Positions 1,869 to 20,000 of a stretch of 20,000 nucleotides of DNA are shown piece by piece; the stretch's first letter is position 1, and the number at the start of each line of letters is the position of its first letter. The notes under the pieces were generated by a model that saw nothing but the letters and a program-made list of their open reading frames with translations, made no database searches and was not told the DNA's origin. Source of the stretch: an uncultured virus (IMG/VR IMGVR_UViG_2786546901_000002) (lineage: Duplodnaviria; Heunggongvirae; Uroviricota; Caudoviricetes); the IMG/VR virus record IMGVR_UViG_2786546901_000002; one strand, 5' to 3'. The position numbers and the translations under genes are program-made.

Positions 1869-1884
1869 GAATATTTTCAACGAT

Positions 1885-1913
1885 GCCCGGAACCCGAGCG
1901 GGAGGTTCCGGGC
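1885..1913 (+). other. Perfect 10-bp hairpin downstream of the recombinase
   Basis: GCCCGGAACC (1885-1894), 9-nt loop, GGTTCCGGGC (1904-1913). Confidence 0.75.
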
Positions 1914-1949
1914 TATGCTTTATATAACATATCAAAATCAGAACTGTAA

Positions 1950-2618: not shown

Positions 2619-2748
2619 CACGCGGTTCCGTACCGGACATGGCCGGATACCAGTCCGAAGACTTCTGTAAATCATAATTTTCAAGCCGGACTGTCAATCG
2701 AAAGAAGGACGACCCGGCTATACTTCAACAACAAGAGATAGCACTATT

Positions 2749-3339
2749 ATGAGCATACAAATCGGAAAACTGTTGCCGGACGGCAGTGTCCGGCACATCA
2801 AGGCGCTCCATGAGACGCTTTCAAAAGACCTTGTGAGGAAACTCCGGGTGTTCTATCCCAATGACAGACGGGTAGATGCCCTGCTGTCGCTGGGCGACAT
2901 ACAAAAACTGGGACCGTCACCCTATGGAAAATGGACAGGAACCGGCGATACCGTCCACTGTTTTTCAAAGATCCGTGACGGACGGGAAACACCGCGGCAA
3001 TCCGCATCACGCATCGCGGACAACGCAGACATTTTCGGCCGCATGGAGGACACGTGCCTCCTGTTCGATAACGGCAGATGGCGTGTCATGGACAAGGGAG
3101 AATACTGTGAACAGCCGCTCTTCGTCGAAGATACGCCCTCCCATGACAGCATGAAACCGATCACGGTATATGTGAACAACCATGTCCGACTCGAAAAGAT
3201 AAATACACCGCAGCACTGGCAGGGACTTGAGGAACTCGCCGAACGGGAATCCAGGATACTCTATGTCTACCGGGGGTGCCGCCTTGTGAGAATCGTCCGT
3301 TCGTCCAACCTTAAAAAGAAACTGTATGCGGCACAATAA
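2749..3339 (+). CDS. Hypothetical protein (196 aa), resembles an uncharacterised phage-type family
   Basis: ORF with A-rich leader. N-terminal IG...DGSV..I and LLSLGDIQKL...RDGRE pattern. Confidence 0.85.
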   Translation: MSIQIGKLLPDGSVRHIKALHETLSKDLVRKLRVFYPNDRRVDALLSLGDIQKLGPSPYGKWTGTGDTVHCFSKIRDGRETPRQSASRIADNADIFGRMEDTCLLFDNGRWRVMDKGEYCEQPLFVEDTPSHDSMKPITVYVNNHVRLEKINTPQHWQGLEELAERESRILYVYRGCRLVRIVRSSNLKKKLYAAQ

Positions 3340-5230: not shown

Positions 5231-6099
5231 AAAAATACCGGATAGCTATCGAAGAGACGCTCCGTAAGGTCGTGGAGATCGAGGCAGAAACGCCCGGTCT
5301 GGCCGTCTGCAGGGCGGAAGACGAATACAATGAAGAGAAACACGTGCTGTCAGCCGACAATTTCGCAGGAGCTGACATCGCGCTCTCGACTGATGACAGC
5401 ACGGTCATGGAGACTCTGGAAGACGTGGATTTCATCGGATACGTGCAACGCCGTTTCGAGGAATGCCGGGAGTCCATATCCGTCGAAGACAAAGTCCGGC
5501 TGGCATTCGGAAGTTTCGACAACGCCCTGTATGAGTTCGGCGAATACCGTAAGGAGGCGGCTCGGAACCGCCCGCAGGTCTACCTGCTGTACCGGAGCGA
5601 TGCCTGGCACAACCGTTCTTCCATGGAGCTCATAGCCCCGTTCTCCTCCCTCGAAAACATGATGGAGTACCTGCGGCGTAAGAAGAAGGAATTCCGCCTG
5701 ACGGAAAGTGATCTGGAAGAGTTCAAGAACAACCGGCAGACGAAGGGGCGCGACGAAAACTACCTGTACGAGTCGGATTATTTGGATGTGCTGCCGGAAC
5801 AGGAACCCGAACTGCCGCCGAAAGATGACGCTTTCTATGACAAGGTTTTCACCTGCGGGCAATCCGAGCTGTCACGCAGGGAGTTGGAATCTCTGCCGGA
5901 GCCGTTCGATACCTACCATGTTACGGACGAAGAAATGGAACAGATTGTGTACGAAACGGAAATGGAGACACGGGACCGGCTGCGGCTCGGTAAAAGAAAG
6001 CCCATAGATTTTGACAATGACCGCCATAGTGAAATCTGGTGGGAAGAAATGGAAAAAGCAGTGGTAAGGCACGGCGTACCGTACTACGAGGCCGAATAA
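5227..6099 (+). CDS. DpnD/PcfM-like N-terminal domain protein (290 aa)
   Basis: MKKYRIAIEETLRKVVEIEAE...AEDEYNEEKHVLSADNF matches the DpnD/PcfM pattern. ATGA overlap with the upstream stop. Confidence 0.8.
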   Translation: MKKYRIAIEETLRKVVEIEAETPGLAVCRAEDEYNEEKHVLSADNFAGADIALSTDDSTVMETLEDVDFIGYVQRRFEECRESISVEDKVRLAFGSFDNALYEFGEYRKEAARNRPQVYLLYRSDAWHNRSSMELIAPFSSLENMMEYLRRKKKEFRLTESDLEEFKNNRQTKGRDENYLYESDYLDVLPEQEPELPPKDDAFYDKVFTCGQSELSRRELESLPEPFDTYHVTDEEMEQIVYETEMETRDRLRLGKRKPIDFDNDRHSEIWWEEMEKAVVRHGVPYYEAE

Positions 6100-6139
6100 C
6101 GAAAATAGAACCTGTTCATCACATGCCATAATGATGACG

Positions 6140-6175
6140 GGCCGTCGCGGCTACGGCTGCGGCGGTCTTTTTTTT
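6140..6175 (+). terminator. Rho-independent terminator
   Basis: GGCCGTCGCGGC-TACG-GCTGCGGCGGTC (12-bp stem with G-U pairs, UNCG tetraloop) followed by T8. Confidence 0.88.
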
Positions 6176-6239
6176 CAAAACGAGGTGAGTATTCCACCCC
6201 TTATACAAAACGATTACCTACTCTTAAAAAAACGGATTT

Positions 6240-6911
6240 ATGAAACAGACAAGACAGGATTTCTTCACGGCGAACGGGGAAGGAATCAAAATCATGACAT
6301 TTACGGAGTTCGCCCGGCATATCCTGCGTATGGAATGCGGGGAAAGTCTGGAACTGTATGCCGTTGTGAACCGGCAGACACGGGAATGCTCCCGGCCGCT
6401 CTCTGTCAGAAAGGAACAATGGAACGGTACGCCCTTTTACCTGCTCGGCGGGCACGGGCAGGAAGTCCGTACCATCAATTTTGCGGGTCGTCCGAAAGAG
6501 GAGTTTGAAACGACCTGCCATGATGTCTTGGACAGCTACGATGCCGTGGAAAGTATCGGGGCGGTCGTGTCAAGACTGCGTGAATTATCTCCTGAAGAAC
6601 TGCATAAGCGGATTGCGGAAGAGATGAAGACCGGCTGTAAATACCTGTTGGTCTACCGCAGCGAGGAGGAGATGACGGCCGCACTCGACGGCAAGATATA
6701 CGCCATCAGCGATACGGACGGCAAATTCCTTTGCGACCTGTATCAGCCGGATTATCTCCATCTGGAAAACGGGGGCGATATTGTGGACACCGCATCCATT
6801 CCGGACATGCATTTCCATTCCGATTGGGCAATCGCCAACCCCACGGTACGCGACAAGGTGCTCTCCTCCCGGATGGTGATTATATATACCCACGAAACGG
6901 TAACGCTATGA
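6240..6911 (+). CDS. Hypothetical protein (223 aa)
   Basis: ORF after the terminator with an A-rich leader. ATGA-coupled to the next gene. Confidence 0.85.
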   Translation: MKQTRQDFFTANGEGIKIMTFTEFARHILRMECGESLELYAVVNRQTRECSRPLSVRKEQWNGTPFYLLGGHGQEVRTINFAGRPKEEFETTCHDVLDSYDAVESIGAVVSRLRELSPEELHKRIAEEMKTGCKYLLVYRSEEEMTAALDGKIYAISDTDGKFLCDLYQPDYLHLENGGDIVDTASIPDMHFHSDWAIANPTVRDKVLSSRMVIIYTHETVTL

Positions 6912-7258
6912 TAGAGATTGGCAACAGGATAGAAACGCCGGAAGGTGTGTTCTATGAACTGGAATACGGAGGGGAAGGAAACATCTACAAGAACGAGGAT
7001 GCCTTTCTCAACCGCCCCGATGAAGTGTGCTATGTACCTGAATACGCGGCAGAAGACCGTGAGGACTGGCGTGTGTCGGAGAGCAGTGACGGCTGTTTCA
7101 CGCATAACTCACTGCTCGCCCTGTGCAAGGGTAATGAAGAGGTGTGCCAGGATCTGTTTTACAGCCTTGAATGGACGTACCCGACCACCTTGCTGGAAGA
7201 ATGGGACTCGAACGGCTATTTCGATGAGATCGAGGGCTGGTATGACAGTAACGATTAA
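6908..7258 (+). CDS. Small acidic hypothetical protein (116 aa; start MIEIGNR)
   Basis: ATG at 6908 overlaps the upstream TGA (ATGA). The track's 6731 start is an extension inside the previous gene. Confidence 0.82.
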   Translation: MIEIGNRIETPEGVFYELEYGGEGNIYKNEDAFLNRPDEVCYVPEYAAEDREDWRVSESSDGCFTHNSLLALCKGNEEVCQDLFYSLEWTYPTTLLEEWDSNGYFDEIEGWYDSND

Positions 7259-7579
7259 ATGGAACGGCATATCATGGACAGGAAATACAAAATCACATAC
7301 TCGGGAAAAATCACGGGCAAGACCCCGAACTACATATTGAGCCTGCGGGCGCATCTGAAAGGCATCTTCCCTGAAATGGAACGGTATGGTAAGGAAGAAT
7401 TCGACCACGTGCTTCATTGCATCAGCTCGTTCATTGATGATTTTACCTTCAAGGTACGCAATTCCCGATACCGGGGAGACATCCTGAAAAGGACTATCAG
7501 TAACGACTGCCTGAAAGTGTTCAACCTGGGTGACGAGAAAGTGATACTGACCGTCTCCTTCACCCCGCTGGAAACATGA
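7259..7579 (+). CDS. Hypothetical protein (106 aa; alternative start 7274)
   Basis: Abuts the previous stop codon and fills the gap in the co-directional array. Confidence 0.75.
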   Translation: MERHIMDRKYKITYSGKITGKTPNYILSLRAHLKGIFPEMERYGKEEFDHVLHCISSFIDDFTFKVRNSRYRGDILKRTISNDCLKVFNLGDEKVILTVSFTPLET

Positions 7580-7589
7580 AACCAACAAT

Positions 7590-8018
7590 ATGACAGATAT
7601 GGATAAAATACAGAAAGACAATGCGGAGCCGGGCAAAGCCCCGGACAAAATGAGCGCCGACAAGCTGCATCTGTTCGCCACCCAGTACGCCTTTATCGAC
7701 GGACGGCTGCACGAGGCCGAGCAAGCCATGCTGAAATTCATGCTGGAGTTCCTGGCACAATATGGCCGCGTATCACTCGGCCTTACAGAAGAGGAGGAAC
7801 TCGATGACAACAACTTCCCCGTCACGACAACCTTGTACGGGAAGCACGACACGCCCCGTATCAAGCTTACCGATGTCTACCTGACGGATGACGGGGAATA
7901 TCTCCTTGCTGACGGAATAGATGCGGAGACCGGGGAAAAACGGGACGGATTCTATATCTACAGCGAACAATACGCCGATATCTTCCAGTTCGTCGGCCAC
8001 GCTTCGGAGATGAACTGA
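7590..8018 (+). CDS. Acidic hypothetical protein (142 aa)
   Basis: ORF with an A-rich leader, 10 nt after the previous stop. Confidence 0.82.
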   Translation: MTDMDKIQKDNAEPGKAPDKMSADKLHLFATQYAFIDGRLHEAEQAMLKFMLEFLAQYGRVSLGLTEEEELDDNNFPVTTTLYGKHDTPRIKLTDVYLTDDGEYLLADGIDAETGEKRDGFYIYSEQYADIFQFVGHASEMN

Positions 8019-8050
8019 CGAATGAGGAACAACCATAAAACGAAATATCA

Positions 8051-8569
8051 ATGGACTGTATCAAAGATTTACAAGACGCCATCCGCAACATTCTCGTGAA
8101 CAACGGCCTTACGGAACTCTGTCTGGGAGAGCCTGACGAACTGGACGATCCCACCTATATCATCTGGTATGACAGGCACTGTGAGCCTCACGAAGACCCG
8201 GTATTGAAGGTTTACCTTGAAAATGAGGGCATTGCCGTTGAGGTCGAAGCCCGCAGTTTCGGGAACACGATAACCGTCTACGATTATGACATAGACCGTA
8301 TTGAATGGTGGAAAGGCATTCATGCCAATATTCTGGAAGTGCTGGAGCGTGACGGCAAGCGCCGGTGTCCGGCCTGTGGCAGGACGGTCAAGGGGAAGCA
8401 GCGGTATTGCGGTGCCGGATGCCGTGATTTCATGACTCCCGGACCGACAGTGGAGCAGGTCGCGGAAAAAGCCAACCGGAATATCCGCAAACTGGCAAGC
8501 CTTGCCGCCGGAAAAGACAAGGCGTACCGGAAGCGGCTGATAGAGAAATATACCGTCGGTCCGTCATAA
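8051..8569 (+). CDS. Hypothetical protein with C-terminal zinc ribbon (172 aa)
   Basis: CPACGRTVKGKQRYCGAGC (CxxC-x10-CxxxC). Confidence 0.82.
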   Translation: MDCIKDLQDAIRNILVNNGLTELCLGEPDELDDPTYIIWYDRHCEPHEDPVLKVYLENEGIAVEVEARSFGNTITVYDYDIDRIEWWKGIHANILEVLERDGKRRCPACGRTVKGKQRYCGAGCRDFMTPGPTVEQVAEKANRNIRKLASLAAGKDKAYRKRLIEKYTVGPS

Positions 8570-8603
8570 GCCGGCTTTGTTACACTAAAAAATGTATGAT
8601 ATT

Positions 8604-8783
8604 ATGGCAACAAGAACCATTTACCTGACCGTACGGCTCGATATCGACAACCCGAAGGCTGATGAAATAACGGACGAAGAGGTTGACGAAATTATCAGCG
8701 AAGTGGACTATGAATTCAAAAATTACGGGGACTATGAAATCGACACGGAAATCTGCGGGAAAAATGACGAAGGTGGTCTTTAG
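8604..8783 (+). CDS. Very acidic small protein (59 aa; alternative start 8592)
   Basis: MATRTIYLTVRLDIDN...; 18 D/E versus 5 K/R by manual count. Confidence 0.75.
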   Translation: MATRTIYLTVRLDIDNPKADEITDEEVDEIISEVDYEFKNYGDYEIDTEICGKNDEGGL

Positions 8784-9027
8784 ACGCTATCCCGACGGAC
8801 AGGTCATCGCCCTGTTCCCGGACATACCGTGGAGCGGACGGCGGGGTGAAATAACCTCCTACATGCATGTCGGCCAGCATGGCGCAGCCGACTATGCGGG
8901 CGTGATCGCCATGACACGGCCAGCCCATGAAAAGGAGTACCGCAACCCGCTTTCCGAACTGAGAGCCATCGGTTACGATGACCTACACATCATGCGGCGT
9001 GCAAGACCGAAATTCATAAACAGCTAA
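8764..9027 (+). CDS. Small phage-type hypothetical protein (87 aa; start MTKVVFRR)
   Basis: The VVFR...G.VIALFP...SYMHVGQHG...EY..EL..IGY pattern recalls a family common in phages and mobile elements. Overlaps the previous gene by 20 nt. Confidence 0.8.
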   Translation: MTKVVFRRYPDGQVIALFPDIPWSGRRGEITSYMHVGQHGAADYAGVIAMTRPAHEKEYRNPLSELRAIGYDDLHIMRRARPKFINS

Positions 9028-9038
9028 AAACAAATCTT

Positions 9039-9542
9039 ATGTCTCATAAACCGAATGCCGTTCCTGTCTTGCAGGAGGGAACGGTCTATACAATTATACT
9101 TGACAACGGACGAAAGGTCCACGACGTAATCTATCATGCCTGTGTCGCCTCCGGCAAGTCGTATTTCGCCAAAGGCGATAAGACCTATCCCGCCGAAAAG
9201 GTGCGGAACCATTCAATCACCGGACATGCCGCATCGGACGGCTCTAGAAGGAACGGCACACCCAATCCCGACCGCTTCGCCATCACGGATGAAGTGTGCG
9301 AGGTCGTTGATGTAGTTACCACGCCGGAAACCAATCCGGAAATGTTCCGGTGTCGTGTCAAATGCCTGATGTATTCAGGCCTGTCACAAGCCGAGGCTGA
9401 GAAAGTCATCGCTTCAACGCCACTAAAGCTGGAACTCTTCTACGACGTAGGCCGTGGCAGTTTCGCTATTGACGCCGAGGCAGTTGGCAACACACCGCTG
9501 TATAATCCTTACACGGGAAAGGAAATCCCGGATGAAACCTAA
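9039..9542 (+). CDS. Hypothetical protein (167 aa)
   Basis: ORF with an A-rich leader, tightly packed in the array. Confidence 0.8.
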   Translation: MSHKPNAVPVLQEGTVYTIILDNGRKVHDVIYHACVASGKSYFAKGDKTYPAEKVRNHSITGHAASDGSRRNGTPNPDRFAITDEVCEVVDVVTTPETNPEMFRCRVKCLMYSGLSQAEAEKVIASTPLKLELFYDVGRGSFAIDAEAVGNTPLYNPYTGKEIPDET

Positions 9543-9559
9543 GCCGAACTACATCGAAT

Positions 9560-10264
9560 ATGAGAGAACTATATATCAAGAATCTCTGCATCGAGATTAC
9601 CCGACGTTGCAACATGCGCTGTACCCATTGCATGCGGGGAGATGCCGAATCCGTGGATATCCCTTTGAAACATATAAGCAACCTGCTGCGGCATGTCAGG
9701 CATATTCACCATTTCAACATCACGGGCGGCGAGCCGTCGCTTAACGTCCGGGCCATCCGCCATATCCTCGAACGGGTACGCGCCTACGGTATTACTGTCA
9801 ATGACTTTTATATCGTAACCAACGGCTCTGCCACATCCCGTTCGGAGGAATTCATAGAAGCCTGCGCCGCACTGTACGAGTACCAGGAGGAAAAGGAACA
9901 GGACTCCGGCCACATGCTCGAAATGAGCGACGACCGCTTCCATGATCCGGCAGAGCATGCCGCCACGCTCGCGGCACTTTCCCCGTATCCCTTTTTCGGA
10001 GTCCGGGGACAGGCCGAGCGTATCTTCCTTTTCCGGGAAGGCCGCAGCACGGAGGGGTTTCCGAACCCTGTTCATGGGATTTATCTTACGGAGGAGAACT
10101 ACGTTTACGGCGACCTCTGTCTCAATGCTGAAGGCATGGTTCTCTCCAACGGGGACCTGAGTTATGCCCGCCAACGGGAACATGCCCTGTGTCCCTGCGG
10201 GAAACTGATGCAATATCTCCGGATGACCTTGAAAAAGCGTCAAAAAGAAAGATTGTACGAATAA
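9560..10264 (+). CDS. Radical SAM protein (234 aa)
   Basis: CxxxCxxC (EITRRCNMRCTHC), GGE motif (ITGGEPSL) and VTNG. Confidence 0.92.
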   Translation: MRELYIKNLCIEITRRCNMRCTHCMRGDAESVDIPLKHISNLLRHVRHIHHFNITGGEPSLNVRAIRHILERVRAYGITVNDFYIVTNGSATSRSEEFIEACAALYEYQEEKEQDSGHMLEMSDDRFHDPAEHAATLAALSPYPFFGVRGQAERIFLFREGRSTEGFPNPVHGIYLTEENYVYGDLCLNAEGMVLSNGDLSYARQREHALCPCGKLMQYLRMTLKKRQKERLYE

Positions 10265-10284
10265 ATACACAAATCAAAAAACTT

Positions 10285-11187
10285 ATGTCAATCGTATGCA
10301 GTATCTGCGGCGGCACTGGAGTGAAATGTACCGCCGTCATCGACCCGAACACCAGACAGTTCCTCGAATTTACCCGCAACGCCTTGTCGGACGGCCGGTG
10401 CAGCCAGTGCGGCAACGTTGCCCTGACCGACCCTGACGAAGTAAAAGCCGGGCTGGACAAGCTTTGGACGGAATATACGGCGCGGCATCGTGCCGCCCCC
10501 AACTACACCTGCTGCGACATTGTCCGGCATGGTGATTACGACGGGTGTGAAAAGGCGTATATCCGCATCGGAGGCCCGTCAGACGTGGTCGAGAAGTATC
10601 CGGTCGTGGCCGTGTGCCGCGACCTCGAAGAGCTCAAATCACTTGCACTCCCTGACCCGACGCGAGAATTTACCCTCATGGGAATTCAAGGGTTCGAGTT
10701 CCACGACGTGTTGGAAAACAAGACCTACGAGATCGGGGTGGACGACCTGAAAATTCCCGTCACGACGAAAGAGGTGCTGGACTTTTACCCGGCGGAACAT
10801 CGGCTGAAAGAAACGGACATCGAACAATATGCCGCGGCTTACACGGCCCGTATCAAGGCGTACAGGGAGTATACCCGTCAGCTCGACGCCACACTCGTGC
10901 GGCGGCTTCTCGACAAAGAGCGGCTGATGAAAGTCGGCGAGAGCGACGGTTTCCGCTTGAAACTCCATTTCGACTGGTTTGTCATTTTAAAGCGGGAGAA
11001 CGAAAGGATGTACGCGCCTTTCAAATACGCTGTAAATGCTTATTGTCTGGATAATATCCAAACTTTCGACCGTCGTTATGTCACGCTCGAAGATGCCTTG
11101 CTCCACTGCCTGAACGGTTTCAACGAGAACGCGAACATTCCTAACCGTTACAAGTCCATCGGGCATTACCTGTCGGGGAAATCCTGA
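10285..11187 (+). CDS. Hypothetical protein with N-terminal zinc finger (300 aa; start MSIVCSIC)
   Basis: CSIC...CSQC pair. ATG at 10285 follows an A-rich leader, whereas the track's 10189 start overlaps the radical SAM gene. Confidence 0.82.
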   Translation: MSIVCSICGGTGVKCTAVIDPNTRQFLEFTRNALSDGRCSQCGNVALTDPDEVKAGLDKLWTEYTARHRAAPNYTCCDIVRHGDYDGCEKAYIRIGGPSDVVEKYPVVAVCRDLEELKSLALPDPTREFTLMGIQGFEFHDVLENKTYEIGVDDLKIPVTTKEVLDFYPAEHRLKETDIEQYAAAYTARIKAYREYTRQLDATLVRRLLDKERLMKVGESDGFRLKLHFDWFVILKRENERMYAPFKYAVNAYCLDNIQTFDRRYVTLEDALLHCLNGFNENANIPNRYKSIGHYLSGKS

Positions 11188-11288
11188 CGACGGGCAGTGT
11201 ATCGACGGGTTACCGGAGGCCACGGGTGCTTTCCCCTTGACCGGAATACCGTCGGAACAAGTAACAATGTAACCAAAGAATAAAAAAT

Positions 11289-11765
11289 ATGATGAATGAT
11301 TATAAAATCAAGAACATTCTCGAATCCCTGAAAGAGGAGGTCGAGAACGGGAAGGTATCCCTGCGGGAAGCTGCTGTCGAACTTCATAAAGCCGGCTGGA
11401 CGAATTTCATCGACATCGACGCCACGAGGAACCTACTGAAGACCCGGAATGTAACGGGGAACGGAAATGTCCCGGGAGTTTCCGACATGATGGGAAAATA
11501 CCGCGAGATGAAAGCGGCGCACCCGGATGCCCTGTACATTTTCCGAAACGGGGAATCTTGTGAATTGTATGAGGATGATGCCATCGCCGCTTCCGGCATT
11601 TTGGGCATTGCCACCGCCGAACGCGTCGACGGGCAAGGGAAAGGCGTCAAGGAACTGCGGTTTTCTTTTCGTGACCTGGACGTGTATCTCCCCAAACTGA
11701 TACGCGCCGGAAACCGGGTGGCTGTCTGCGAACCGAATCAAACCGGTTCGGGCAAACGAGTTTGA
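11289..11765 (+). CDS. Stand-alone MutS domain I protein with N-terminal extension (158 aa)
   Basis: MMGKYREMKAAHPDALYIFRNGESCELYEDDA...LDVYLPKLIRAGNRVAVCE aligns with MutS domain I. No ATPase domain. Confidence 0.85.
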   Translation: MMNDYKIKNILESLKEEVENGKVSLREAAVELHKAGWTNFIDIDATRNLLKTRNVTGNGNVPGVSDMMGKYREMKAAHPDALYIFRNGESCELYEDDAIAASGILGIATAERVDGQGKGVKELRFSFRDLDVYLPKLIRAGNRVAVCEPNQTGSGKRV

Positions 11766-11803
11766 TAACCATTAAATAACAAATATTCAAAACCCAAAGA
11801 CAC

Positions 11804-12250
11804 ATGATAAAGATAACAACGATTTTCGGCGAGGACGCCGTACGGGAATATGAAGAGAACAATGAACTGCCTTCTGAAGAATGGCTGGCGGATAACGGGG
11901 GCGTCGTGGACGAGAAAGAGTTCGAGACTGAGGCGGAGTACAATGCCTACATCGCCGGGGTAAACGATGCCGACGGATGGAGTGATTATCATATCATACG
12001 CCACCGGTCGGAAGAGGCGGACACCTCGAGAGAGGAAAATCTCTGGCTACGTCTCGGAATTAGCGTCCGGGGCAGCCGGGAGGACATCGAAAGGATTCTA
12101 AACGGGGACACCGAAACCCTTCGGAAACTGCTCGATGCCGGACGTTATGGGATTGGCGGAGAGACCTATGTCCCTGGTTCGACCGTCGAGGGGTACAACG
12201 AGGACCACGACACGGAGTTCGAGGAGGAAGACGTGGAGTTCCATTTATAA
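11804..12250 (+). CDS. Acidic hypothetical protein (148 aa)
   Basis: About 40 D/E by manual count. N-terminal domain is paralogous to that of the next gene (FETEAEY.AY). Confidence 0.85.
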   Translation: MIKITTIFGEDAVREYEENNELPSEEWLADNGGVVDEKEFETEAEYNAYIAGVNDADGWSDYHIIRHRSEEADTSREENLWLRLGISVRGSREDIERILNGDTETLRKLLDAGRYGIGGETYVPGSTVEGYNEDHDTEFEEEDVEFHL

Positions 12251-12272
12251 TAAAACCACACCATCTGCAATA

Positions 12273-12779
12273 ATGATAACAGTAAAAGTTCTACTCGGTA
12301 AGGATACTGTAAGCATATACAGGAAAACCGGGGATATCTCGTCGGTGGAGAGCACGGCCGAATCCGGGGGATATGTGATAACCCGACATTTCGAGACCGA
12401 AGCTGAATACAAAGCCTACGCAATGGCTGTGGAAGACCTGGACGGACATGAAGACTGGCAGATGCTGACTCCTGCCGTTACGCCGGAAGCTCCGTTCCGC
12501 AAAGGGGAATTTGTCCGGCTGACAGACGATGCAATTAAGCGGATACGTGAAAGTTTCGGGGACGGACCGGCTGACTACAGAAAGGAAATGATTTTGGAGG
12601 TGATTGCCTGGTGCCGCTATGAAGGCACATGGATCATTGAAGTCCGAGATATCCGTGAAGACGATACTCAGGAGTTCGATGCCGTTTTTCTGCGCCCCTT
12701 GACGGCACGGGATCTCGTGGCTATTTCCGCACCCCGACACCCGCTATCCACTGCGATATATCCTATTCACATCCGATAA
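12273..12779 (+). CDS. Hypothetical protein (168 aa; start MITVKVLLG)
   Basis: ATG at 12273 aligns with the start of the upstream paralogue. Confidence 0.85.
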   Translation: MITVKVLLGKDTVSIYRKTGDISSVESTAESGGYVITRHFETEAEYKAYAMAVEDLDGHEDWQMLTPAVTPEAPFRKGEFVRLTDDAIKRIRESFGDGPADYRKEMILEVIAWCRYEGTWIIEVRDIREDDTQEFDAVFLRPLTARDLVAISAPRHPLSTAIYPIHIR

Positions 12780-12791
12780 CTTAAATGATGC

Positions 12792-13385
12792 ATGATGGAA
12801 AATATATTCATACTGCCCGGAAACGAACAGGAACTGTTTAACCGGTATTTAGATAACAACGAATACGGCCCTCTGAAAGAACGGCTGGAACTGGTCAGGA
12901 AAGCCTTGAGCAACAAGCTTTCCCCGGATGAACGCAATAAGCACGGGCTGAACGTGGGTGTGCATGAACTGTCCATGGAACGTAAGGAACTGGAAAGAAA
13001 GATATTCCAAATGGCACTCAAATCCTTTGCAGAACGGGTTTGTGACGAGCAACGCGCTCTTTGCGAACAGGGGTTCTGGCAGGCACCGTGCGGCAAAGAG
13101 GCGGAATATATCTCCTCCGCTCCGGTTCCGGACCTTGTAACGGACGTGAAGCAGTACAAGACCATTTGCCGCTGGTGGGAGAAGCTGTCCGATACCAGGA
13201 GGCTGAAGGTAGCGGCGATGTTTGCAAACGAACTGGGACCGATATACGGGCACGACACCGAAACGCTGGAACGGATTTATAGCCGCTGGTTTCTACTCTC
13301 CTTAGATGGCAAACAACGCATCTACCATTCATGGACCACAAACGAAAAACAGACTTCACCATGCCATACAAAAGCTCGGGAATAA
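12792..13385 (+). CDS. Hypothetical protein (197 aa)
   Basis: ORF in the co-directional array. Confidence 0.82.
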   Translation: MMENIFILPGNEQELFNRYLDNNEYGPLKERLELVRKALSNKLSPDERNKHGLNVGVHELSMERKELERKIFQMALKSFAERVCDEQRALCEQGFWQAPCGKEAEYISSAPVPDLVTDVKQYKTICRWWEKLSDTRRLKVAAMFANELGPIYGHDTETLERIYSRWFLLSLDGKQRIYHSWTTNEKQTSPCHTKARE

Positions 13386-13696
13386 TCATCAGCGGGACAC
13401 AATATGACCGCAGGCAGAAGCTCACTCCTTTTCAGAAGGCTGAAATTTTCCACCGTTACATGACAGAAGCTGTCAGCCAGCGCCAGCTTGCCCGGGAATA
13501 CGGTGTCAGCCGCAGGCTGATAACCTTCATTGTGAACCCAGAAAGCGAAGAGCGGAACAAGGAACTGCTGAGAGAGAACAAGGCAAAAGGCTTGTATAAA
13601 TATGACCGGAAGAAACATACCGAAAATATACGCAACCACCGTCGTTACAAACAGAGATTATTTCAAGAAGGTAAAATCATACTAAAAGATGGATAG
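13361..13696 (+). CDS. Helix-turn-helix DNA-binding protein (111 aa; start MPYKS)
   Basis: KLTPFQKAEIFHRY...SQRQLAREYGVSRRLITFIV is a classic HTH. Basic C-terminus. Confidence 0.82.
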   Translation: MPYKSSGIIISGTQYDRRQKLTPFQKAEIFHRYMTEAVSQRQLAREYGVSRRLITFIVNPESEERNKELLRENKAKGLYKYDRKKHTENIRNHRRYKQRLFQEGKIILKDG

Positions 13697-13699
13697 ACA

Positions 13700-14356
13700 A
13701 TGAGAATACAGGAGAAACAAAAAGCGTTGGAACAGGAAGTTATAGCCAACCTGTGTGCGATACCGAAAATGCCGGAAAATATGTTGCCCCATACGGTATA
13801 TGTCGAGGAGGAAGGGGAAGACGGGTATGGCCACGGGATACCGGTATACACCATGTACCGGTTGGAGGAGATACGCACGGACGGAAGCTGCACGCTTTAC
13901 AACGCGGAAAGCCGGGAGCGTTTCACCTGCCGCCACCTGCATGAGATTAACATGGACTGGCTGGTGACAGTCTGGGAACGTTATCTGGAACTCTGTGTCG
14001 AGCAGGATATCTGGAAAGGGAATGCCGTTGCATTCCTGAAAGACCGTACCGGCAAACCGGAAGAGGAAATCATTTCATTCGTGGAAACCTCGTGGGACAA
14101 ATGCCAGGCTTATACAGACAACCTCAAGGCGTTTCTTGGGGAAGATAAAGACCGGGAAATATGGATATTCTCTTTCCCGCTGGACGAATTTGAACGTGAC
14201 GTTCCGGCCGGGAAAATCATCGTTGATTACGAAAATAACCCCGCAACGCGGGTTGAGAAGATGACACCGCTGGAATTTACGGCCAACATCAATGATGAAT
14301 GTTTTGATGACCGGAACAATTGGGTAAGAGCCATTGAACTTCCCAAGCAGGAATAA
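13700..14356 (+). CDS. Hypothetical protein (218 aa)
   Basis: Starts 3 nt after the previous stop. Confidence 0.85.
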   Translation: MRIQEKQKALEQEVIANLCAIPKMPENMLPHTVYVEEEGEDGYGHGIPVYTMYRLEEIRTDGSCTLYNAESRERFTCRHLHEINMDWLVTVWERYLELCVEQDIWKGNAVAFLKDRTGKPEEEIISFVETSWDKCQAYTDNLKAFLGEDKDREIWIFSFPLDEFERDVPAGKIIVDYENNPATRVEKMTPLEFTANINDECFDDRNNWVRAIELPKQE

Positions 14357-14378
14357 TAAACTATTTGAATCAATAAAT

Positions 14379-14687
14379 ATGATTACAAAAGAAAACATTG
14401 GCAACGAGACCTTTGAGTCTATGACCATCAATGACACGCCTGCATTGTTTACGGATATGCGGATTGACCGGAATGCCGTTCCGGAGGGACTGTACGCATA
14501 CGATATCCGGGAGTCGGATGACGGGGACCGTCTGGCGACCATCGAACCGACGGTGATGGTAAATCATGGCGGAACCATCCTGACCAGGAAAGAGTTTATC
14601 ACGGAAAAGGACGGCTATGTACAGATTGACGAATACGGTTTCGAGGCCTCCATGACACTGGAAGAGTGGCTTGAGGAAAACAATTAA
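14379..14687 (+). CDS. LPD28-like (large polyvalent protein-associated domain 28) protein (102 aa)
   Basis: ALFTDMRIDRNAVPEGLYAYDIRESD...TIEPTVMVNHGGTI matches the LPD28 pattern as I recall it. Confidence 0.78.
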   Translation: MITKENIGNETFESMTINDTPALFTDMRIDRNAVPEGLYAYDIRESDDGDRLATIEPTVMVNHGGTILTRKEFITEKDGYVQIDEYGFEASMTLEEWLEENN

Positions 14688-14700
14688 ATGTATAAAGGAT

Positions 14701-15111
14701 ATGGATATTAAGGAACTGACAGAAAGGTATCAGGATCGTTTCGATGCCCATTACCTGCAAGACGATAACGGAACCGGCAGAAAAGGTCGGAAACGGAAAA
14801 AGGAAGTTGAGACCCCGAATTTTCTCAAGGATGTTATCCGGCCGATCCTGGACACTTTGCCGGACTTGTTGCCGGAGTACGGGTTCACCAAAACTACGGA
14901 TGATTACGCCATGTACGGCGAGTATTACCGTATCAAGGCGGGTATCGTCCTCGTGGGAGGTTTTTCCATCGATGAGGATTTTAACCTGTACTTCACGCCA
15001 TTGTTCCATGGCAAAGCCTGCGGTAAGAGTCACAAAATCGACAGCATCGGACAACTCGTTGAAATCATCCGCGAACAATTTGAAAGAAGGGAGGTGAAGA
15101 TGAAAGGATAG
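14701..15111 (+). CDS. Hypothetical protein (136 aa; start MDIKEL)
   Basis: ATG 13 nt after the previous stop. Contains a basic patch, RKGRKRKK. Confidence 0.8.
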   Translation: MDIKELTERYQDRFDAHYLQDDNGTGRKGRKRKKEVETPNFLKDVIRPILDTLPDLLPEYGFTKTTDDYAMYGEYYRIKAGIVLVGGFSIDEDFNLYFTPLFHGKACGKSHKIDSIGQLVEIIREQFERREVKMKG

Positions 15112-15149
15112 TTTCATGCAATAGACATGGGTCGTTCCGTAATTTATTG

Positions 15150-15157
15150 TATATTTG
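15150..15157 (+). promoter_or_regulatory. Bacteroidetes -7 promoter box
   Basis: TATATTTG matches TAnnTTTG, in the intergenic gap ahead of 15266. The -33 TTTG is not well matched. Confidence 0.55.
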
Positions 15158-15265
15158 TCAGATGAAGAAAGTCTGTATATGTATTTCGGACGAAAGCCCG
15201 GCAGTTGAACGGATTACAGGCACTTTCATGTTTGGCTGACATCAAACCTAATATATCTATTTGAT

Positions 15266-15589
15266 ATGAAAAAGGAAGAGATTATTCGCCGCTGTTACGG
15301 CGGCATGAAGGAAAGGCATGGCGTGGAAACCATCATCCTTTTCCATGTCGGAGATTCATTCGAGGCGTATTTTGATGATGCCGAAACGATTACCCGGATC
15401 ACGGAAGTGCCCCGGTTCAAGATGACGGCGGCAGGTATACCTGCCATCAGGATTTCCGACGCCGCCTTGGAAGAATGTAGAAACCGGTTGCTGGATGCAG
15501 GATGCAAGGTATGCGTGTCCGAGGTCCGGGGGGTATCCGGCCGCCACATTCTCAAAATCAATGAAACAAATACGGAAACGGGCCGATGA
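15266..15589 (+). CDS. Stand-alone MutS domain I protein (107 aa)
   Basis: YGGMKERHGVETIILFHVGDSFEAYFDDA...RLLDAGCKVCVSE aligns with MutS domain I. Confidence 0.82.
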   Translation: MKKEEIIRRCYGGMKERHGVETIILFHVGDSFEAYFDDAETITRITEVPRFKMTAAGIPAIRISDAALEECRNRLLDAGCKVCVSEVRGVSGRHILKINETNTETGR

Positions 15590-16217
15590 ATTGATATTGA
15601 TAGCGGCAGCAATAGGTCCTTGGACACTGTTGGTGGTAGCGGTATTAATCATCGGAACGCTGAAATGCTGTCTGACCACGGACTCGGACAGCATTGACGA
15701 AAGTATCAACAAATCACCGGGGATAGTCGCGCATGTCATGGTACTGGACAGTACGGATAATGGTTTTCGGGTGGTTTATGCGACGGCTGCGCCGGTAACG
15801 GATGAAAGGTTTGCCGAGATATGCGACAGGCCGGGTATTTTGGAGGGGTTCGAGAACCTGAAACGGAAAGCTCCCGAACACTTTGGCGGCAACCTGCTGG
15901 AAACCGACATCTGTGACTTCGCGTTGTACGCCTACCGGTTTCCTATCGATAAGGACGTACGGATACACAATATCTTTGTCGCCGGTAAAGAGAAAATGGA
16001 CTTCTATGTCCGGAACAACCCGGACCTGCCCGGGTGCGCTACATGGATGCACCACGGTACGGAACAAGGGAACCAATATCTGAATGCTGACGATATAAAT
16101 CACTGTATACCCAACGGAAGGCGGATTTACCGTTATTGGAAATGCCGTTATCTACTGCAAACTTCTGATACTGACGAGCGTTTCAGTCATTTTACAGAGG
16201 AGGAAAGGCTGTACTGA
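15561..16217 (+). CDS. Membrane-anchored hypothetical protein (218 aa; start MKQIRKR)
   Basis: Basic N-terminus followed by hydrophobic LILIAAAIGPWTLLVVAVLIIGTL. Overlaps the MutS-I gene by 29 nt. Confidence 0.8.
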   Translation: MKQIRKRADELILIAAAIGPWTLLVVAVLIIGTLKCCLTTDSDSIDESINKSPGIVAHVMVLDSTDNGFRVVYATAAPVTDERFAEICDRPGILEGFENLKRKAPEHFGGNLLETDICDFALYAYRFPIDKDVRIHNIFVAGKEKMDFYVRNNPDLPGCATWMHHGTEQGNQYLNADDINHCIPNGRRIYRYWKCRYLLQTSDTDERFSHFTEEERLY

Positions 16218-16277
16218 ATGCAGCCTTTTCTCTATATATATTACACATAACCATCTGAAAATTAATAACTAAAACGT

Positions 16278-16308
16278 TTTGTTGGCGTGAAAAATTGGCA
16301 TATATTTG
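16278..16308 (+). promoter_or_regulatory. Consensus Bacteroidetes primary-sigma promoter
   Basis: TTTG (16278-16281), 19-nt spacer, TATATTTG (16301-16308): an exact -33/-7 consensus. Confidence 0.8.
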
Positions 16309-16379
16309 TATGGAAAAGTGACCCATTGAAAACAGATTGTCAATTGAAAGCAATAGATTGAATATGAAAGAACAGTAAT

Positions 16380-16910
16380 ATGACATCGGAAAAATCGCAA
16401 CTGAAGTTTGCGAGATCGGAAGAGACGGGCGAACTGATAGGGTTCGTTTCGCGCCATTCCAAGACACGTAAATTGATGGGAGTCCGTGAAGACTCAAGAT
16501 TCGGCAAGCAGATTTGTGTCCTTTCGGAAGACCTGAAAGGAACTCTCGAGCCAAACATACTATACTCGGTAGAGTTGAAACCCATGCACAAAGCCAACGG
16601 GTATGTAGTCGTTGCCGCTACCCCCGTGTTATTTCAGGCGCATGTGGAAACAGTGATCGTCCCGAAGACATTGTATCAAGTAACTGTGACGTTCGGCAAC
16701 AAAAAGATTTTCTTCGACCCGAAAGACGGCAAGAGCGTAATGAGCCGCACAATAGACGGTGTGCTGGAAATCCTCAAGGGACGCAAGGATATCAAGTACA
16801 AGGAAGGTGTCATCACCGACTATCTGAATCAGGCGCGTGCTCTGGTACGACGTATGGAATCCGACGGGTTCATCTATACGGGAGACAGACATCAGGGAGG
16901 AATTCAATGA
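16380..16910 (+). CDS. Hypothetical protein (176 aa), beta-rich N-terminal part
   Basis: First ORF after the promoter. ATGA-coupled to the RNase H gene. Confidence 0.87.
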   Translation: MTSEKSQLKFARSEETGELIGFVSRHSKTRKLMGVREDSRFGKQICVLSEDLKGTLEPNILYSVELKPMHKANGYVVVAATPVLFQAHVETVIVPKTLYQVTVTFGNKKIFFDPKDGKSVMSRTIDGVLEILKGRKDIKYKEGVITDYLNQARALVRRMESDGFIYTGDRHQGGIQ

Positions 16911-17305
16911 AAGAAAAACCGGTCGTGGGTATTGCGACCGACGGTGCCCATTCTGCAAAAGAGAGGTTGACACGCTTCCGGGCTGTCGACCTCTCTTCAG
17001 GAAAAGAACTCTTTTCCAAAGCTATCGGTAACTGGACGAACAATATCGGGGAGTTTCTCGGCATTGTCGAGGCGGTCAGATATGTCATGGAACATCCGGA
17101 AAGTCCGCGAACAATCTACTCGGACAGCATTACAGCCATCACGTGGTATCGTAACAAACAGACAGCCTCTTCACGCAGATGCCCGGCATTGCAGAAAGCG
17201 GAGATATTCCTCAAAGTGATGGAGGCAAGAATCAAGGACATCGAAGTGCTGCACTGGGACAACCGCCTGTGGGGTGAGATTCCTGCCGACTTCGGAAACA
17301 AATAA
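16907..17305 (+). CDS. rnhA: Ribonuclease HI catalytic domain (Bacillus halodurans type), no hybrid-binding domain (132 aa)
   Basis: The DEDD active site is intact: ATDGA, TNNIGEFLGIV, IYSDS, WGEIPADFG. True start is ATG 16907. Confidence 0.9.
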   Translation: MKEKPVVGIATDGAHSAKERLTRFRAVDLSSGKELFSKAIGNWTNNIGEFLGIVEAVRYVMEHPESPRTIYSDSITAITWYRNKQTASSRRCPALQKAEIFLKVMEARIKDIEVLHWDNRLWGEIPADFGNK

Positions 17306-17315
17306 CAACATCAAT

Positions 17316-17519
17316 ATGGCAAAATTAAAATCACAGTCACAGAAATATGTTGAGCTGAAGGAGGAAGACTACCTGTTGCTCATCGAGAATACCATCAAGA
17401 TGGAAGCCCTGAAGATTGCCGGTATCGAAAAGATGCCCATATACAAGGCTATGGAACATATCCTTGAACACGAGCACATCGACCTGCTCGTCAAACCCGT
17501 TTCAAGGAGATATTCTTGA
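17316..17519 (+). CDS. Small hypothetical protein (67 aa; start MAKLKS)
   Basis: ATG 10 nt after the RNase H stop, with an A-rich leader. Last gene of the + strand array. Confidence 0.75.
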   Translation: MAKLKSQSQKYVELKEEDYLLLIENTIKMEALKIAGIEKMPIYKAMEHILEHEHIDLLVKPVSRRYS

Positions 17520-17554
17520 TTTTTTTAGGTGGACAATAATACACCCCACAAGCA

Positions 17555-17621
17555 AAATCAATGCTTATCAGTACCAAATGATAGTATATAATAACAATTA
17601 ATGTAAATCAATGCAAATCAG
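17555..17621. repeat. Direct repeat AAATCAATGCnnATCAG x2
   Basis: 17555-17571 and 17605-17621, 15/17 identical, 50 bp apart. Confidence 0.6.
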
Positions 17622-17630
17622 ATGATTAAG

Positions 17631-17677
17631 AAAGTGGCGCATGTACGGAATTATCTATACCATACATGCGCCACTTT
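17631..17677. terminator. 18-bp inverted repeat, probable (bidirectional) terminator or binding site
   Basis: AAAGTGGCGCATGTACGG, 11-nt loop, CCATACATGCGCCACTTT (17/18 complementary), between convergent gene sets. Confidence 0.7.
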
Positions 17678-17700
17678 GCTCTATACACTTTTTGATTTCC

Positions 17701-17856
17701 TTGATTGATAAAAGAAGGTTCTTTTCCAGTGTTTTACAATCCGACTTTTTTATATACTTTTGTCTTCAGTATCAGTTGGTTATTGAAACCCTCTATGTAT
17801 GCTTATAAGTAGAGATTAGCTTTTTTAAGCGAAACTAACTACTGGTTATCAATCAA
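17701..17856. repeat. 11-bp inverted repeat pair
   Basis: TTGATTGATAA (17701-17711) and TTATCAATCAA (17846-17856). Confidence 0.5.
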
Positions 17857-17949
17857 TTATCAAACAAAAAAAGTTTGCCCTATAAGATACAGTCCTCTCA
17901 ACTACAACCAACCCTAACTAACTGAACACGTTGTTCCTAAACTTTTAAA

Positions 17950-18594
17950 TTACTCTTTTTTCCCGTCATCCTTAGATTCGCTGGTTTTACTACCAACTGT
18001 GACAATACTAAAACGACCCTCTTCCAACTGTATATAAATTTCTTTATTTTCGCTCAACGGTCTTCCGTCATTCTTCTGCATAGAATAAATTTTAGCTCTC
18101 CGCAACACGATCTCTCTCTGCGGACTGAAATAGGAAAAACTTTTTATATATCCAATGTATTTATAATTATTCTTATAATCATAAATCTCAACTTTCCGAT
18201 TCTTCTTACACAAAAAATTCACATAATGATCCCATAACTTTACATGCAATAAACCAGCATAATTCAAGCGGATCCTACGCATCAAACGACCGATAAAAAA
18301 AGCTGCGACACTCCCCGCCGCCAATGCATAAAACATTGTACGAAGAGGAATTTCGGTAAACTTATAACCAAATACAATCCAAACGTCAGAATTATTACCT
18401 ATAGGAATGCCATACATAAAATAGCCGATTACTTCTACAATCCCATAGGCTAAAATAGCCCATATTGTGCTATATAAAATAAATTTATACAGCCTATCTA
18501 TGGCATATCCCGCCACATATCTGTACACTGTAAATGAAACCATTCCGGGGATCAGGAAAAGAATCACCATCCATAATATATCCGTTACTACCAT
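17950..18594 (-). CDS. Membrane protein, DUF6338-like (214 aa)
   Basis: Three hydrophobic segments with an LIPG motif, then a soluble YIGYIKSFS...EIVL..AKIY domain. Low GC. Confidence 0.75.
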   Translation of the reverse strand: MVVTDILWMVILFLIPGMVSFTVYRYVAGYAIDRLYKFILYSTIWAILAYGIVEVIGYFMYGIPIGNNSDVWIVFGYKFTEIPLRTMFYALAAGSVAAFFIGRLMRRIRLNYAGLLHVKLWDHYVNFLCKKNRKVEIYDYKNNYKYIGYIKSFSYFSPQREIVLRRAKIYSMQKNDGRPLSENKEIYIQLEEGRFSIVTVGSKTSESKDDGKKE

Positions 18595-18596
18595 AT

Positions 18597-20000
18597 TTAT
18601 CTGTTATATAAACAACGATCCCGTTCAGCTATCAGGCTATCTACAGGCGTTTCCTCTTTTTTATCTTCACCGATATACACCCTATAGCCGATTTTATTTT
18701 TCAATTCTTTTTCCCATGGTCCGGACACAATTTTTCCCTTTTTTACCGGGAGTTTTATCGCTGTATCTCTTTCAAACCGGTAATAATGATCTTCCAGATT
18801 TCCATATACCGTTTTGTAAAAATAACACCAGACAGACACACTGTCTTTATAAGGACCGTCCGGCAATACATTCATCTCATTTCCCTTTACTCTATTCTCG
18901 TATTGCGGATTGTGAATGTAAAAGTTTCCTTCTTCGTCTTTTCTCAAAATTCCCAAAGCGATATAATATTTATACATTCTCTGCAAATAAGATATTCTTT
19001 TTGAGCCTTTCTCCATCAACCCGTTCTTACACAAATCGTCACATACAGCATCTTCACCTATCCCTCCTTTATCTTTCTGCCATACCTCCTGAATAATCAC
19101 CAGCGGATCGTACGGAATATTTATCATCACATCCTGAATGATCAGACTGTCTCTCATTTCCTGATCCAATAATTCATTATACTCACTATCGCTTATAGCT
19201 CCTATCCAATAACGCCCTTTATTTTGTCCTTCTGGTTTGTCCGCCACTAATTCGTTGATCATGTTACTTTTAGAATCCCACAATACAGTAGGAAGAGTAT
19301 TCGTACAATTTTCCAACAAATAAACTTCAGGCGTAATATGAGTTGATCCGGACCCCTCCTTGACGTTTAAAATATATTTCGCCTGGGCGAATTCTTTGGG
19401 GGTCGAAGGAAAAGTCCCGTTTTTATGTGAAATAAACCGCAATAAATAATAGGGCCTTTCTGCCTTTTTATATCCGATTACTTTTAATGTACAGGAATCA
19501 CAACCATTCTGCACCTTCAAACTATCACATGGCACTTTTCCTTTAGCCAAACACATCCACGTATAAGAATTTACAGAAAATACAACTTTCTTACCATCAT
19601 CCATATTTTCCCAAAAAGCTTCTTTCCAGCACTCCGGATAATCCAAATCTTTTCTTTTTACAACCGCAGCTTTTAGCCAAATTTTATTTATTCCCCAATT
19701 CCACCATCCAGATTTTTTATTATACTCTTCCTGGCGTTTCTTTTGTAAATCCACAGGAGTATAGGTCGCATAAGGTCCGTGATAAATATAAACGGTCGAC
19801 GGAAAAAAGAAATACCAGGATACAAAACCTACGGCCAAAATTAATACAATTATTAACATTTCCCACCAAATATACTTTTGCCACCAAGCCATCACACACT
19901 TTTGCCACCAAACCACCACATGCTTTTGCCACCAAGCCATCACACGCTTTTTCCATATACATTTTTCCTTGCCTGTATTTCGACGATCTATATATATCAT
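18597..20000 (-). CDS. Membrane-anchored hypothetical protein (at least 467 aa; may extend past the window edge)
   Basis: Long low-GC ORF with one TM segment (MLIIVLILAVGFVSWYFFF). Its stop lies 2 nt before the next gene's start. The ATG is at the exact window end. Confidence 0.82.
   Translation of the reverse strand: MIYIDRRNTGKEKCIWKKRVMAWWQKHVVVWWQKCVMAWWQKYIWWEMLIIVLILAVGFVSWYFFFPSTVYIYHGPYATYTPVDLQKKRQEEYNKKSGWWNWGINKIWLKAAVVKRKDLDYPECWKEAFWENMDDGKKVVFSVNSYTWMCLAKGKVPCDSLKVQNGCDSCTLKVIGYKKAERPYYLLRFISHKNGTFPSTPKEFAQAKYILNVKEGSGSTHITPEVYLLENCTNTLPTVLWDSKSNMINELVADKPEGQNKGRYWIGAISDSEYNELLDQEMRDSLIIQDVMINIPYDPLVIIQEVWQKDKGGIGEDAVCDDLCKNGLMEKGSKRISYLQRMYKYYIALGILRKDEEGNFYIHNPQYENRVKGNEMNVLPDGPYKDSVSVWCYFYKTVYGNLEDHYYRFERDTAIKLPVKKGKIVSGPWEKELKNKIGYRVYIGEDKKEETPVDSLIAERDRCLYNR
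19875..19946 (-). repeat. Three tandem 24-bp coding repeats (xVxxWWQK)
   Basis: On the + strand: CTTTTGCCACCAAGCCATCACACA / CTTTTGCCACCAAACCACCACATG / CTTTTGCCACCAAGCCATCACACG. Confidence 0.9.

Follow-up and report, generated by a model that had tools for sequence, protein, structure and literature searches.

The 20,000-nucleotide stretch of DNA analyzed here (hereafter the window; source genome G000), assigned to an uncultured virus of the Caudoviricetes (IMG/VR record IMGVR_UViG_2786546901_000002), carries on its + strand, close to the right end of a ~116-kb prophage, an operon of three genes. They code for a 176-amino acid (aa) protein designated ORF1 (open reading frame 1; 16380-16910 in the ORF list), for a 132-aa catalytic domain of RNase H type 1 of the Bacillus halodurans type, devoid of the hybrid-binding domain (HBD; 16907-17305), and for a small two-helix protein of 67 aa, ORF3 (17316-17519; ORF list and structural model). 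ORF1 and the RNase H belong together, and we estimate, with a probability of about 0.55, that they make up a phage RNase H1 of two parts, with ORF1 taking the place of the HBD as the subunit that binds the substrate or targets the enzyme. The catalytic part of such an enzyme would be the 132-aa protein, which has lost the HBD borne by the chromosomal enzymes of the same order, and ORF1, made in step with it via an ATGA stop/start overlap, would supply a nucleic acid-binding or targeting module consisting of an OB (oligonucleotide/oligosaccharide-binding)-like barrel and a second small domain. Jointly, they would cut the RNA strand of RNA:DNA hybrids, the likeliest substrates being primers and R-loops on the ~116-kb phage DNA, with ORF3 as an accessory protein, possibly a regulator. 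An earlier note on this DNA had listed a promoter, a 176-aa ORF, a 132-aa RNase H coupled to it through ATGA, a 67-aa ORF and a hairpin, and all of them proved to be where it had placed them. Loci, genomes and proteins are designated below by L, G and P numbers, respectively.

The 132-aa protein was matched by phmmer to catalytic-domain chains of B. halodurans RNase H in the PDB (6dmn, 1zbf and others; E = 1.2e-15), with query residues 11-132 aligned to residues 16-142 of the 142-residue chain. Its match to NCBIfam NF046109 is confined to profile positions 91-211 of 211, i.e. to the 121 C-terminal positions, indicating that the N-terminal part is missing, and the Pfam RNase_H profile scored 21.3 bits, under its cut-off of 25.8 bits. 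The protein begins 11 residues ahead of the first catalytic Asp, and no N-terminal HBD (PF01693) was found in it. The acidic tetrad D12/E49/D73/D128 aligns with the acidic positions of the solved B. halodurans chain, and we take it to correspond to the catalytic residues D71/E109/D132/D192; among 54 homologs there is no exception at D12 and D73, and hardly any at E49 and D128. With all four carboxylates kept and the N-terminal positions of NF046109 unmatched, the intact DEDD site and the absence of the HBD proposed in the earlier note both hold.

In a comparison by hhalign with the ~210-aa HBD-bearing chromosomal homologs, the profile of the phage RNase H aligned to columns 81-212 (probability 99.95, E = 7.5e-38), leaving the first 80 columns unmatched. 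RNase H homologs at E ≤ 1e-10 are present in 237 of 401 genomes of the same order (233 apart from the four ORF1-bearing ones described below); the chromosomal homologs are weaker, being 33-44% identical among the matches listed, and 20 of the 26 homolog loci that were fetched code for full-length proteins of ~197-214 aa whose N-terminus bears the HBD motif. Since homologs in the order carry the HBD and the phage profile aligns only to columns 81-212, the 132-aa protein is, judging from these alignments, an RNase H1 catalytic domain of the B. halodurans type that has lost its HBD. Public records already annotate it as RNase H.

Other architectures were also seen in this clade. The HBD-less RNase H is combined with a C-terminal HTH_17 domain in P0421 (162 aa), and with a 280-aa C-terminal extension of no known family in P0420 (412 aa, 19 members). 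One lineage (P0392-P0409, ~210 aa) has an 80-aa basic extension ahead of RNase H, which is faintly similar to the ORF1 barrel (hhalign probability 1.35, E = 0.038, 25 columns); since two cluster members start at an internal Met, this long form may be an over-called ORF. In addition, L023 (77-553) and L040 (1001-1387) contain a second RNase H copy ~53% identical to that of the window, located ~2.7-3 kb upstream of ORF1 and without an ORF1 of its own, which has lost catalytic residues (E49R and D128S in L023).

We examined how regularly ORF1 and the RNase H are found side by side. The ORF1 profile retrieved 49 genome loci, 39 of which were evaluable. The earlier note had called for a check of three-gene synteny, which bore it out: a full RNase H gene lies directly 3′ of ORF1 in 32 of the 39 loci (a partial one in four, and none in three), and ORF3 is present in 25 of those 32. 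The ATGA overlap is kept in 33/37 loci, representing 18 of the 21 junction sequences that differ from one another, and persists at ORF1 identities as low as 55%; it is missing where a gene has decayed (two cases), is truncated (one) or is fused (one). Among the 401 genomes of the order, ORF1 occurs in four, and RNase H of the operon type (at least 55% identity) was found in exactly the same four (as a partial copy, residues 44-125, in G209) and as one fragment in G333, a pseudogene of 60 residues with a stop codon. Moreover, in G379 a distant ORF1 relative (E = 1.6e-22) in another phage-like context is found in one run of genes with an HBD-less RNase H, from which a single 234-aa gene separates it.

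Three lineages have the two proteins fused in frame, each with a different junction, and ORF1 is placed N-terminal to the catalytic domain, which is the position of the HBD in canonical enzymes. In L035, from the isolate genome of Dysgonomonas sp. 520, ORF1 residues 1-138 are joined to RNase H in a protein of 282 aa; P0390 (298 aa, four member sequences) contains ORF1 residues 1-163 at 60% identity; and in P0415 (284 aa) the ORF1 part is 36% identical to the window ORF1 (E = 7e-29). The synteny, the conserved overlap, the exclusive co-occurrence and the three in-frame fusions show that the link between the 176-aa protein and the domain-less RNase H is genuine, and we infer that the two proteins bind each other. 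A programmed frameshift was considered and rejected: the upstream open RNase H frame, spanning 139 codons in the window, amounts to just 5-113 codons in relatives once the six near-identical copies and the fused L035 are set aside, and the 307-308-aa P0002, P0025 and P0089 are single-member frameshift products.

ORF1 itself yielded no family match in Pfam, NCBIfam, PHROG or PADLOC and is labeled “hypothetical protein” throughout public records; its family is moderately diverse, comprising 295 homologs at 90% clustering and 241 clusters at 50% identity. The protein is basic (pI 9.5, with a range of 9.2-9.5 given). Its confident AlphaFold2 (AF2) model (predicted local distance difference test, pLDDT, 91.4; predicted template modeling score, pTM, 0.78) predicts a five-stranded OB-like barrel in residues 1-84, followed in residues 85-165 by a β-β-β-α-α domain of three strands and two helices. 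The barrel came closest to S1, cold-shock and OB modules (Rho, RNase R, NusA, IF1/eIF1A, ExoVII, PriB, single-stranded DNA-binding protein (SSB) and LEF-3), with VIA-align Z scores of 4.7-5.9, values under 8 falling into the range which the tool calls common. Foldseek returned E-values of 0.02-0.1 against the PDB and of at least 2.4e-3 against BFVD viral models, where the LEF-3 single-stranded DNA (ssDNA) binders of baculoviruses lead, and the atlas lead for the barrel, S1CSD-TOTE-2, reached 0.78 only. For residues 85-165, the only matches were to unnamed ribosome-associated chains (Z 6-6.9), and no assignment was made. The OB-like fold foreseen for the 176-aa ORF in the earlier note is therefore borne out in shape, with function not proven; the matches are weak and mixed with barrels that do not bind nucleic acids. 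Binding of ORF1 to nucleic acid would be in keeping with the predicted barrel. The possibility of an HBD hidden inside ORF1 was rejected, as no Pfam hit was obtained at E ≤ 1 and hhalign against the HBD-RNase H profile gave a probability of 0.16.

Several ORF1 relatives depart from the two-domain layout. P0121, P0127 and P0129 (255-278 aa) have the C-terminal domain (~85-165) tandemly duplicated, and P0047 (215 aa) has its first ~65 residues exchanged for a Cys-rich zinc-ribbon-like and helix-turn-helix (HTH)-like segment; the latter is a single sequence, and may be a chimera.

The signals surrounding the operon are all on the + strand. A terminator-like hairpin with 15 pairs, a loop of 5 and a T-rich tail, found by a consensus scan at 16199-16233, closes the upstream gene (15495-16214), and is followed at 16278-16308 by a putative promoter, TTTG-N19-TATATTTG, which conforms to the TTTG-N19-TAnnTTTG motif that we take to be the Bacteroidetes promoter consensus. 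It is the single match to TTTG-N17-21-TAnnTTTG in the window, and by itself is not significant, with 0.30 matches expected per window and at least one match in 54 of 200 shuffles; the assignment also draws on conservation, as the -7 box TAnnTTTG recurs 79-92 nt 5′ of the start of ORF1 in 22 of the 28 related loci, and the full motif in 14 of the 28. Between promoter and ORF1 lies a conserved 5′ leader (16334-16378) with two AGATTG repeats (16334-16339 and 16355-16360) and a mini-ORF of four codons (16364-16378); the leader motif AGATTGTnAATTGA...ATAGATTGAATATG is present in most of the 22 promoter-bearing loci. The repeats and a mini-ORF of 2-4 codons, stopping just 5′ of the ORF1 start, are kept down to ~63% ORF1 identity, and from its sequence the leader could be an operator or a translation signal.

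At the other end, ~115 nt 3′ of ORF3, a conserved hairpin at 17632-17677, recognized by its fold and covariation, is a probable terminator. It has 17 contiguous pairs (z = -4.66 for 17520-17700) and is kept in nine diverged sequences, with compensatory changes on both sides at 4 of 13 pairs; the T-richness of its tail is moderate, the site was not among the results of the consensus terminator scan, and RNA contigs break there in one of four runs. The earlier note had described the operon as self-contained. This stands with respect to its own promoter and terminator, but not fully, since the 240-aa gene immediately 5′ of it (15495-16214, no family match) is conserved together with the operon, and RNA contigs cross the junction in 3/4 runs. 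Further upstream, a second promoter-like -7 box (TATATTTG, 15150-15157) precedes a MutS-I-domain protein (15266-15589), after which comes the 240-aa protein; both accompany the RNase H operon in the majority of loci, and the same RNA contigs cover them. In L023 (1317-2886), the usual 240-aa gene beside ORF1 is replaced by what reads from the ORFs as an HTH protein and a two-part HipA-like kinase, resembling a toxin-antitoxin insertion.

The operon resides in DNA that recurs, 99-100% identical, in up to five other genomes and extends over ~116 kb, from ~G000:C11:1376429 through ~1492318, i.e. to window position 17879 (loci L083-L088 and window 1-17879). The five genomes belong to Bacteroides propionicigenes, B. 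gallinarum, B. ndongoniae, Phocaeicola coprophilus and Alistipes sp., representing two families; over 12380-17879 the identity is 99.7-99.9%, after which the flanks are unrelated and differ in each genome. The right end, a boundary without strand, was placed at 17879 (...AAAGTTTGCC) by this break in identity, by a drop in GC content from ~50% to 33%, and by RNA contigs leaving the window sequence at this point in all four runs. The element contains virion genes (Portal_Mu, Phage_Mu_F, Clp protease, a 1280-aa tape-measure protein, tail proteins, DUF2586 and DUF6046) and replication genes (a split PolIII-alpha, a DnaQ-like exonuclease and a DnaB-like helicase), as well as a sigma factor and, at its left edge, a tyrosine integrase. 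It is thus a temperate phage of Bacteroidales in its prophage form. Its spread over Bacteroides, Phocaeicola and Alistipes is unusually broad for a phage, and deserves a study of its own.

A first reading of the element as conjugative, drawn from the DUF932, DpnD/PcfM, MutS-I and LPD28 domains near the operon, was dropped after a scan of 100 kb upstream showed virion and replisome genes. No tra, relaxase or conjugation family was found in 117 scanned ORFs (29 from the window at E ≤ 0.01, and 88 from five flanking loci at E ≤ 1e-5). A role in removing primers or R-loops during transfer, as offered in the earlier note, therefore does not apply to this prophage. Instead, we favor primer and R-loop removal on the phage DNA, because the phage has its own replisome, but no recognizable 5′-nuclease or SSB, with no match to PF02739 or PF00436 inside the prophage. 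In the circular phage form, the operon would adjoin the integrase and polymerase genes. The PolIII-alpha gene is divided into two ORFs (L087:4867-10606), between which there are two HNH_3/NUMOD4 homing endonuclease genes and an N6/N4 DNA methylase gene.

The same prophage carries, 27 kb upstream of the operon (L085:8964-10223), a full-length reverse transcriptase (RT) of PADLOC class RT_UG27 (E = 2.2e-231) without an RNase H domain. The pair could conceivably serve this RT by stripping the RNA template from its cDNA, and the RT region is also retained, 75% identical, in a related element of G404. We nevertheless regard such a partnership as highly improbable, as the genes are 27 kb apart in different transcription units, and nothing beyond co-residence in the prophage links the RT to the pair functionally.

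For transcription, we relied on four RNA-seq libraries from one sample of one study, represented by assembled contigs without strand, ends or levels. In all four runs, contigs 100% identical to the window cover the operon from 14918 or 15213 to 17879, and then enter DNA absent from G000. The 30 letters that follow 17879 in these contigs were considered as a circular junction; since they occur nowhere in G000, they represent the flank of another host, and not the left end of the phage. The depths of three of the four operon contigs are of little use, because these contigs have been merged with flanking host DNA of high coverage; the contig from run X3 lies wholly inside the phage (14918-17608) at a depth of 72.8, and the 2.9 kb upstream (12000-14900) yielded only pieces of 156-299 nt at depths of 2-6, with the parts of that region that have no RNA contigs proving nothing alone. 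The X3 pattern would not be expected from uniform DNA carry-over. Contigs break at 16200|16337 in run X4, around the upstream terminator and promoter, and at 17608|17697 in run X3, around the hairpin, and contig starts at 15180 and 15213 are situated just 3′ of the -7 box at 15150-15157. This weak evidence from one sample indicates that the last ~3 kb of the prophage are transcribed, with neighboring phage genes nearly silent.

Such a pattern would agree with another reading, in which the pair would be a conflict module (“moron”) expressed in lysogeny at the prophage end, and would destroy RNA:DNA hybrids of competitors or of host immunity to the benefit of the prophage or its host. Its targets could include cDNA of RT-based defenses, retron msDNA, CRISPR R-loops, and primers of incoming plasmids or phages. 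In line with this, no other transcription unit separates the operon from the right prophage end, and the operon is equipped with its own promoter, flanking terminators and a conserved leader; its neighbors (MutS-I domain, LPD28, DpnD/PcfM) are of the accessory type, these domains being tied, in the accessible text of Iyer et al. 2017 (PMC5512222), to conflict proteins of phages and conjugative elements; and one related phage has the HipA-like toxin-antitoxin insertion adjoining the module. However, ORF1, RNase H and ORF3 match none of the 5027 PADLOC models, and PADLOC 2.0 returned no family at E ≤ 0.01 for these three or for the upstream 240-aa protein. Moreover, no target could be pinpointed, a literature search found no RNase H anti-defense module of this kind, and the RNA evidence has the limits given above. 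We consider a conflict module rather unlikely. Its more specific form, a hybrid-hunting weapon in which the OB-like subunit would guide the stripped-down RNase H in lysogeny to hybrids of rivals or immunity (cDNA of defense RTs, retron msDNA, R-loop primers of incoming replicons), is a long shot; if true, it would be the first RNase H-based defense or counter-defense module with a trans-acting targeting subunit.

A number of observations weigh against the two-part RNase H1 with a replication role. An accessory gene expressed in lysogeny would account for the operon's own promoter and the RNA pattern better than a gene of lytic replication would; the distance from the operon to the replication genes is ~105-110 kb in the integrated prophage; and a canonical rnhA is present elsewhere in the host genome. 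The fused forms stem from draft or metagenome assemblies, and the apparent fusions P0002, P0025, P0089 and P0011 are each a single-member frameshift product. The loci are kin to one another, five of them being near-identical copies, so that locus counts overstate their independence. As to ORF1, its profile lacks similarity to the HBD at the hhalign probability given above, its fold matches are weak (Z under 8), and they include barrels not associated with nucleic acids (NigD-like proteins and potempins). ORF1 also remains where the RNase H has decayed (L020, L021) or is gone (L031), and because it persists there without an intact RNase H, it may have a role of its own.

It is with these last points that an alternative in which the RNase H acts alone, as an ordinary small RNase H, would agree, ORF1 being a separate phage protein (e.g. 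an ssDNA-binding protein or a structural adaptor) that shares the operon and the translational coupling. The HBD-less RNase H of the clade also occurs with other partners, such as the P0420 extension and the HTH domain of P0421, and the accessible text of one study reports that the B. halodurans catalytic domain on its own, lacking the HBD, retains activity, at a 50-fold higher concentration (PMC3526281). The three independent in-frame fusions, the exclusive co-occurrence in 401 genomes, and the conservation of the 4-nt overlap over 18 distinct junction sequences speak against two unconnected proteins, and make this alternative unlikely.

The two-part RNase H1 can be compared with known enzymes. 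With RNase H1 of the B. halodurans type (HBD plus catalytic domain; PDB 1zbf/6dmn family), the operon RNase H shares the catalytic domain end to end, the four acidic residues, and the TNN.GEF and YSDS motifs, and its homology to the ~210-aa enzymes found on chromosomes of the same order is clear. It differs in having no N-terminal HBD and linker; instead, there is a separate upstream protein of a different fold, which is translationally coupled and rarely fused. E. coli RNase HI is stimulated by SSB, an OB-fold ssDNA binder. The activity of human RNase H1 is tuned by a separate protein, P32, according to the portion of the report at hand (PMC3750045). SSB and P32 are general cellular proteins, and not dedicated, co-translated or fused subunits, as ORF1 appears to be. 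A further likeness is to Rhc (RNase H-clamp) of Chimalliviridae jumbo phages, which, in the available part of its description, has a clamp-derived DNA-binding domain other than the HBD and is proposed to act in replication and R-loop removal (bioRxiv 10.64898/2026.10.01.755736). Both would be phage RNases H in which the nucleic acid-binding part is not an HBD. Rhc, as described there, is one polypeptide with a C-terminal clamp-derived domain, and a polymerase subunit, whereas the partner proposed here is separate, OB-like and on the N-terminal side, and is not known to contact a polymerase. In the accessible text of PMC3526281, a B. halodurans RNase H catalytic domain was engineered to carry a zinc finger, and the substituted binding module dictated the place of cleavage; that fusion is artificial and sequence-specific, while the partner in the operon is natural.

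Our literature search found no paper on the ORF1-RNase H gene pair, and we believe the barrel-shaped upstream protein to be a previously undescribed partner, which probably takes over substrate binding. RNase H1 is usually viewed as a single polypeptide that finds hybrids by its built-in HBD or basic protrusion. Here a phage lineage would have swapped the HBD for a separate co-translated protein, whose family is still without a name, a Pfam model or a solved relative. If ORF1 does direct the enzyme, it would represent a new nucleic acid-recognition module and a natural case of RNase H retargeting, relevant to R-loop biology and potentially useful as a tool.

The third gene of the operon is strongly conserved, with 15 invariant columns in 21 sequences. 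In the AF2 model of ORF3 (pLDDT 71.7), helices 16-34 and 41-52 follow a basic unstructured segment; there was no match in Pfam, NCBIfam, PHROG or PADLOC, and no Foldseek fold match at E ≤ 0.001. T7 gp5.9, a lead suggested by a language model (0.88), was rejected, as it had no backing from Pfam and ORF3 is not acidic (pI 6.8). We describe ORF3 as a conserved accessory protein, possibly a regulator. It might, as an idea suggested by the topology of the model alone, be a ribbon-helix-helix repressor acting on the AGATTG repeats in the leader.

Elsewhere in the prophage, some of the cargo resembles defense genes, namely, a TIR_2-domain protein (L083:10515-11714) and an RloB/AAA_21 pair (L084:13849-15700). 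An IS110-family insertion (L085:915-2470) was found only in the G000 copy of the prophage. The low-GC (33-39%) flank outside the prophage, on the - strand at 17950-20000, contains a DUF6338-like membrane protein; a protein of more than 467 aa in this flank has a start rich in repeated W-W-Q-K motifs.

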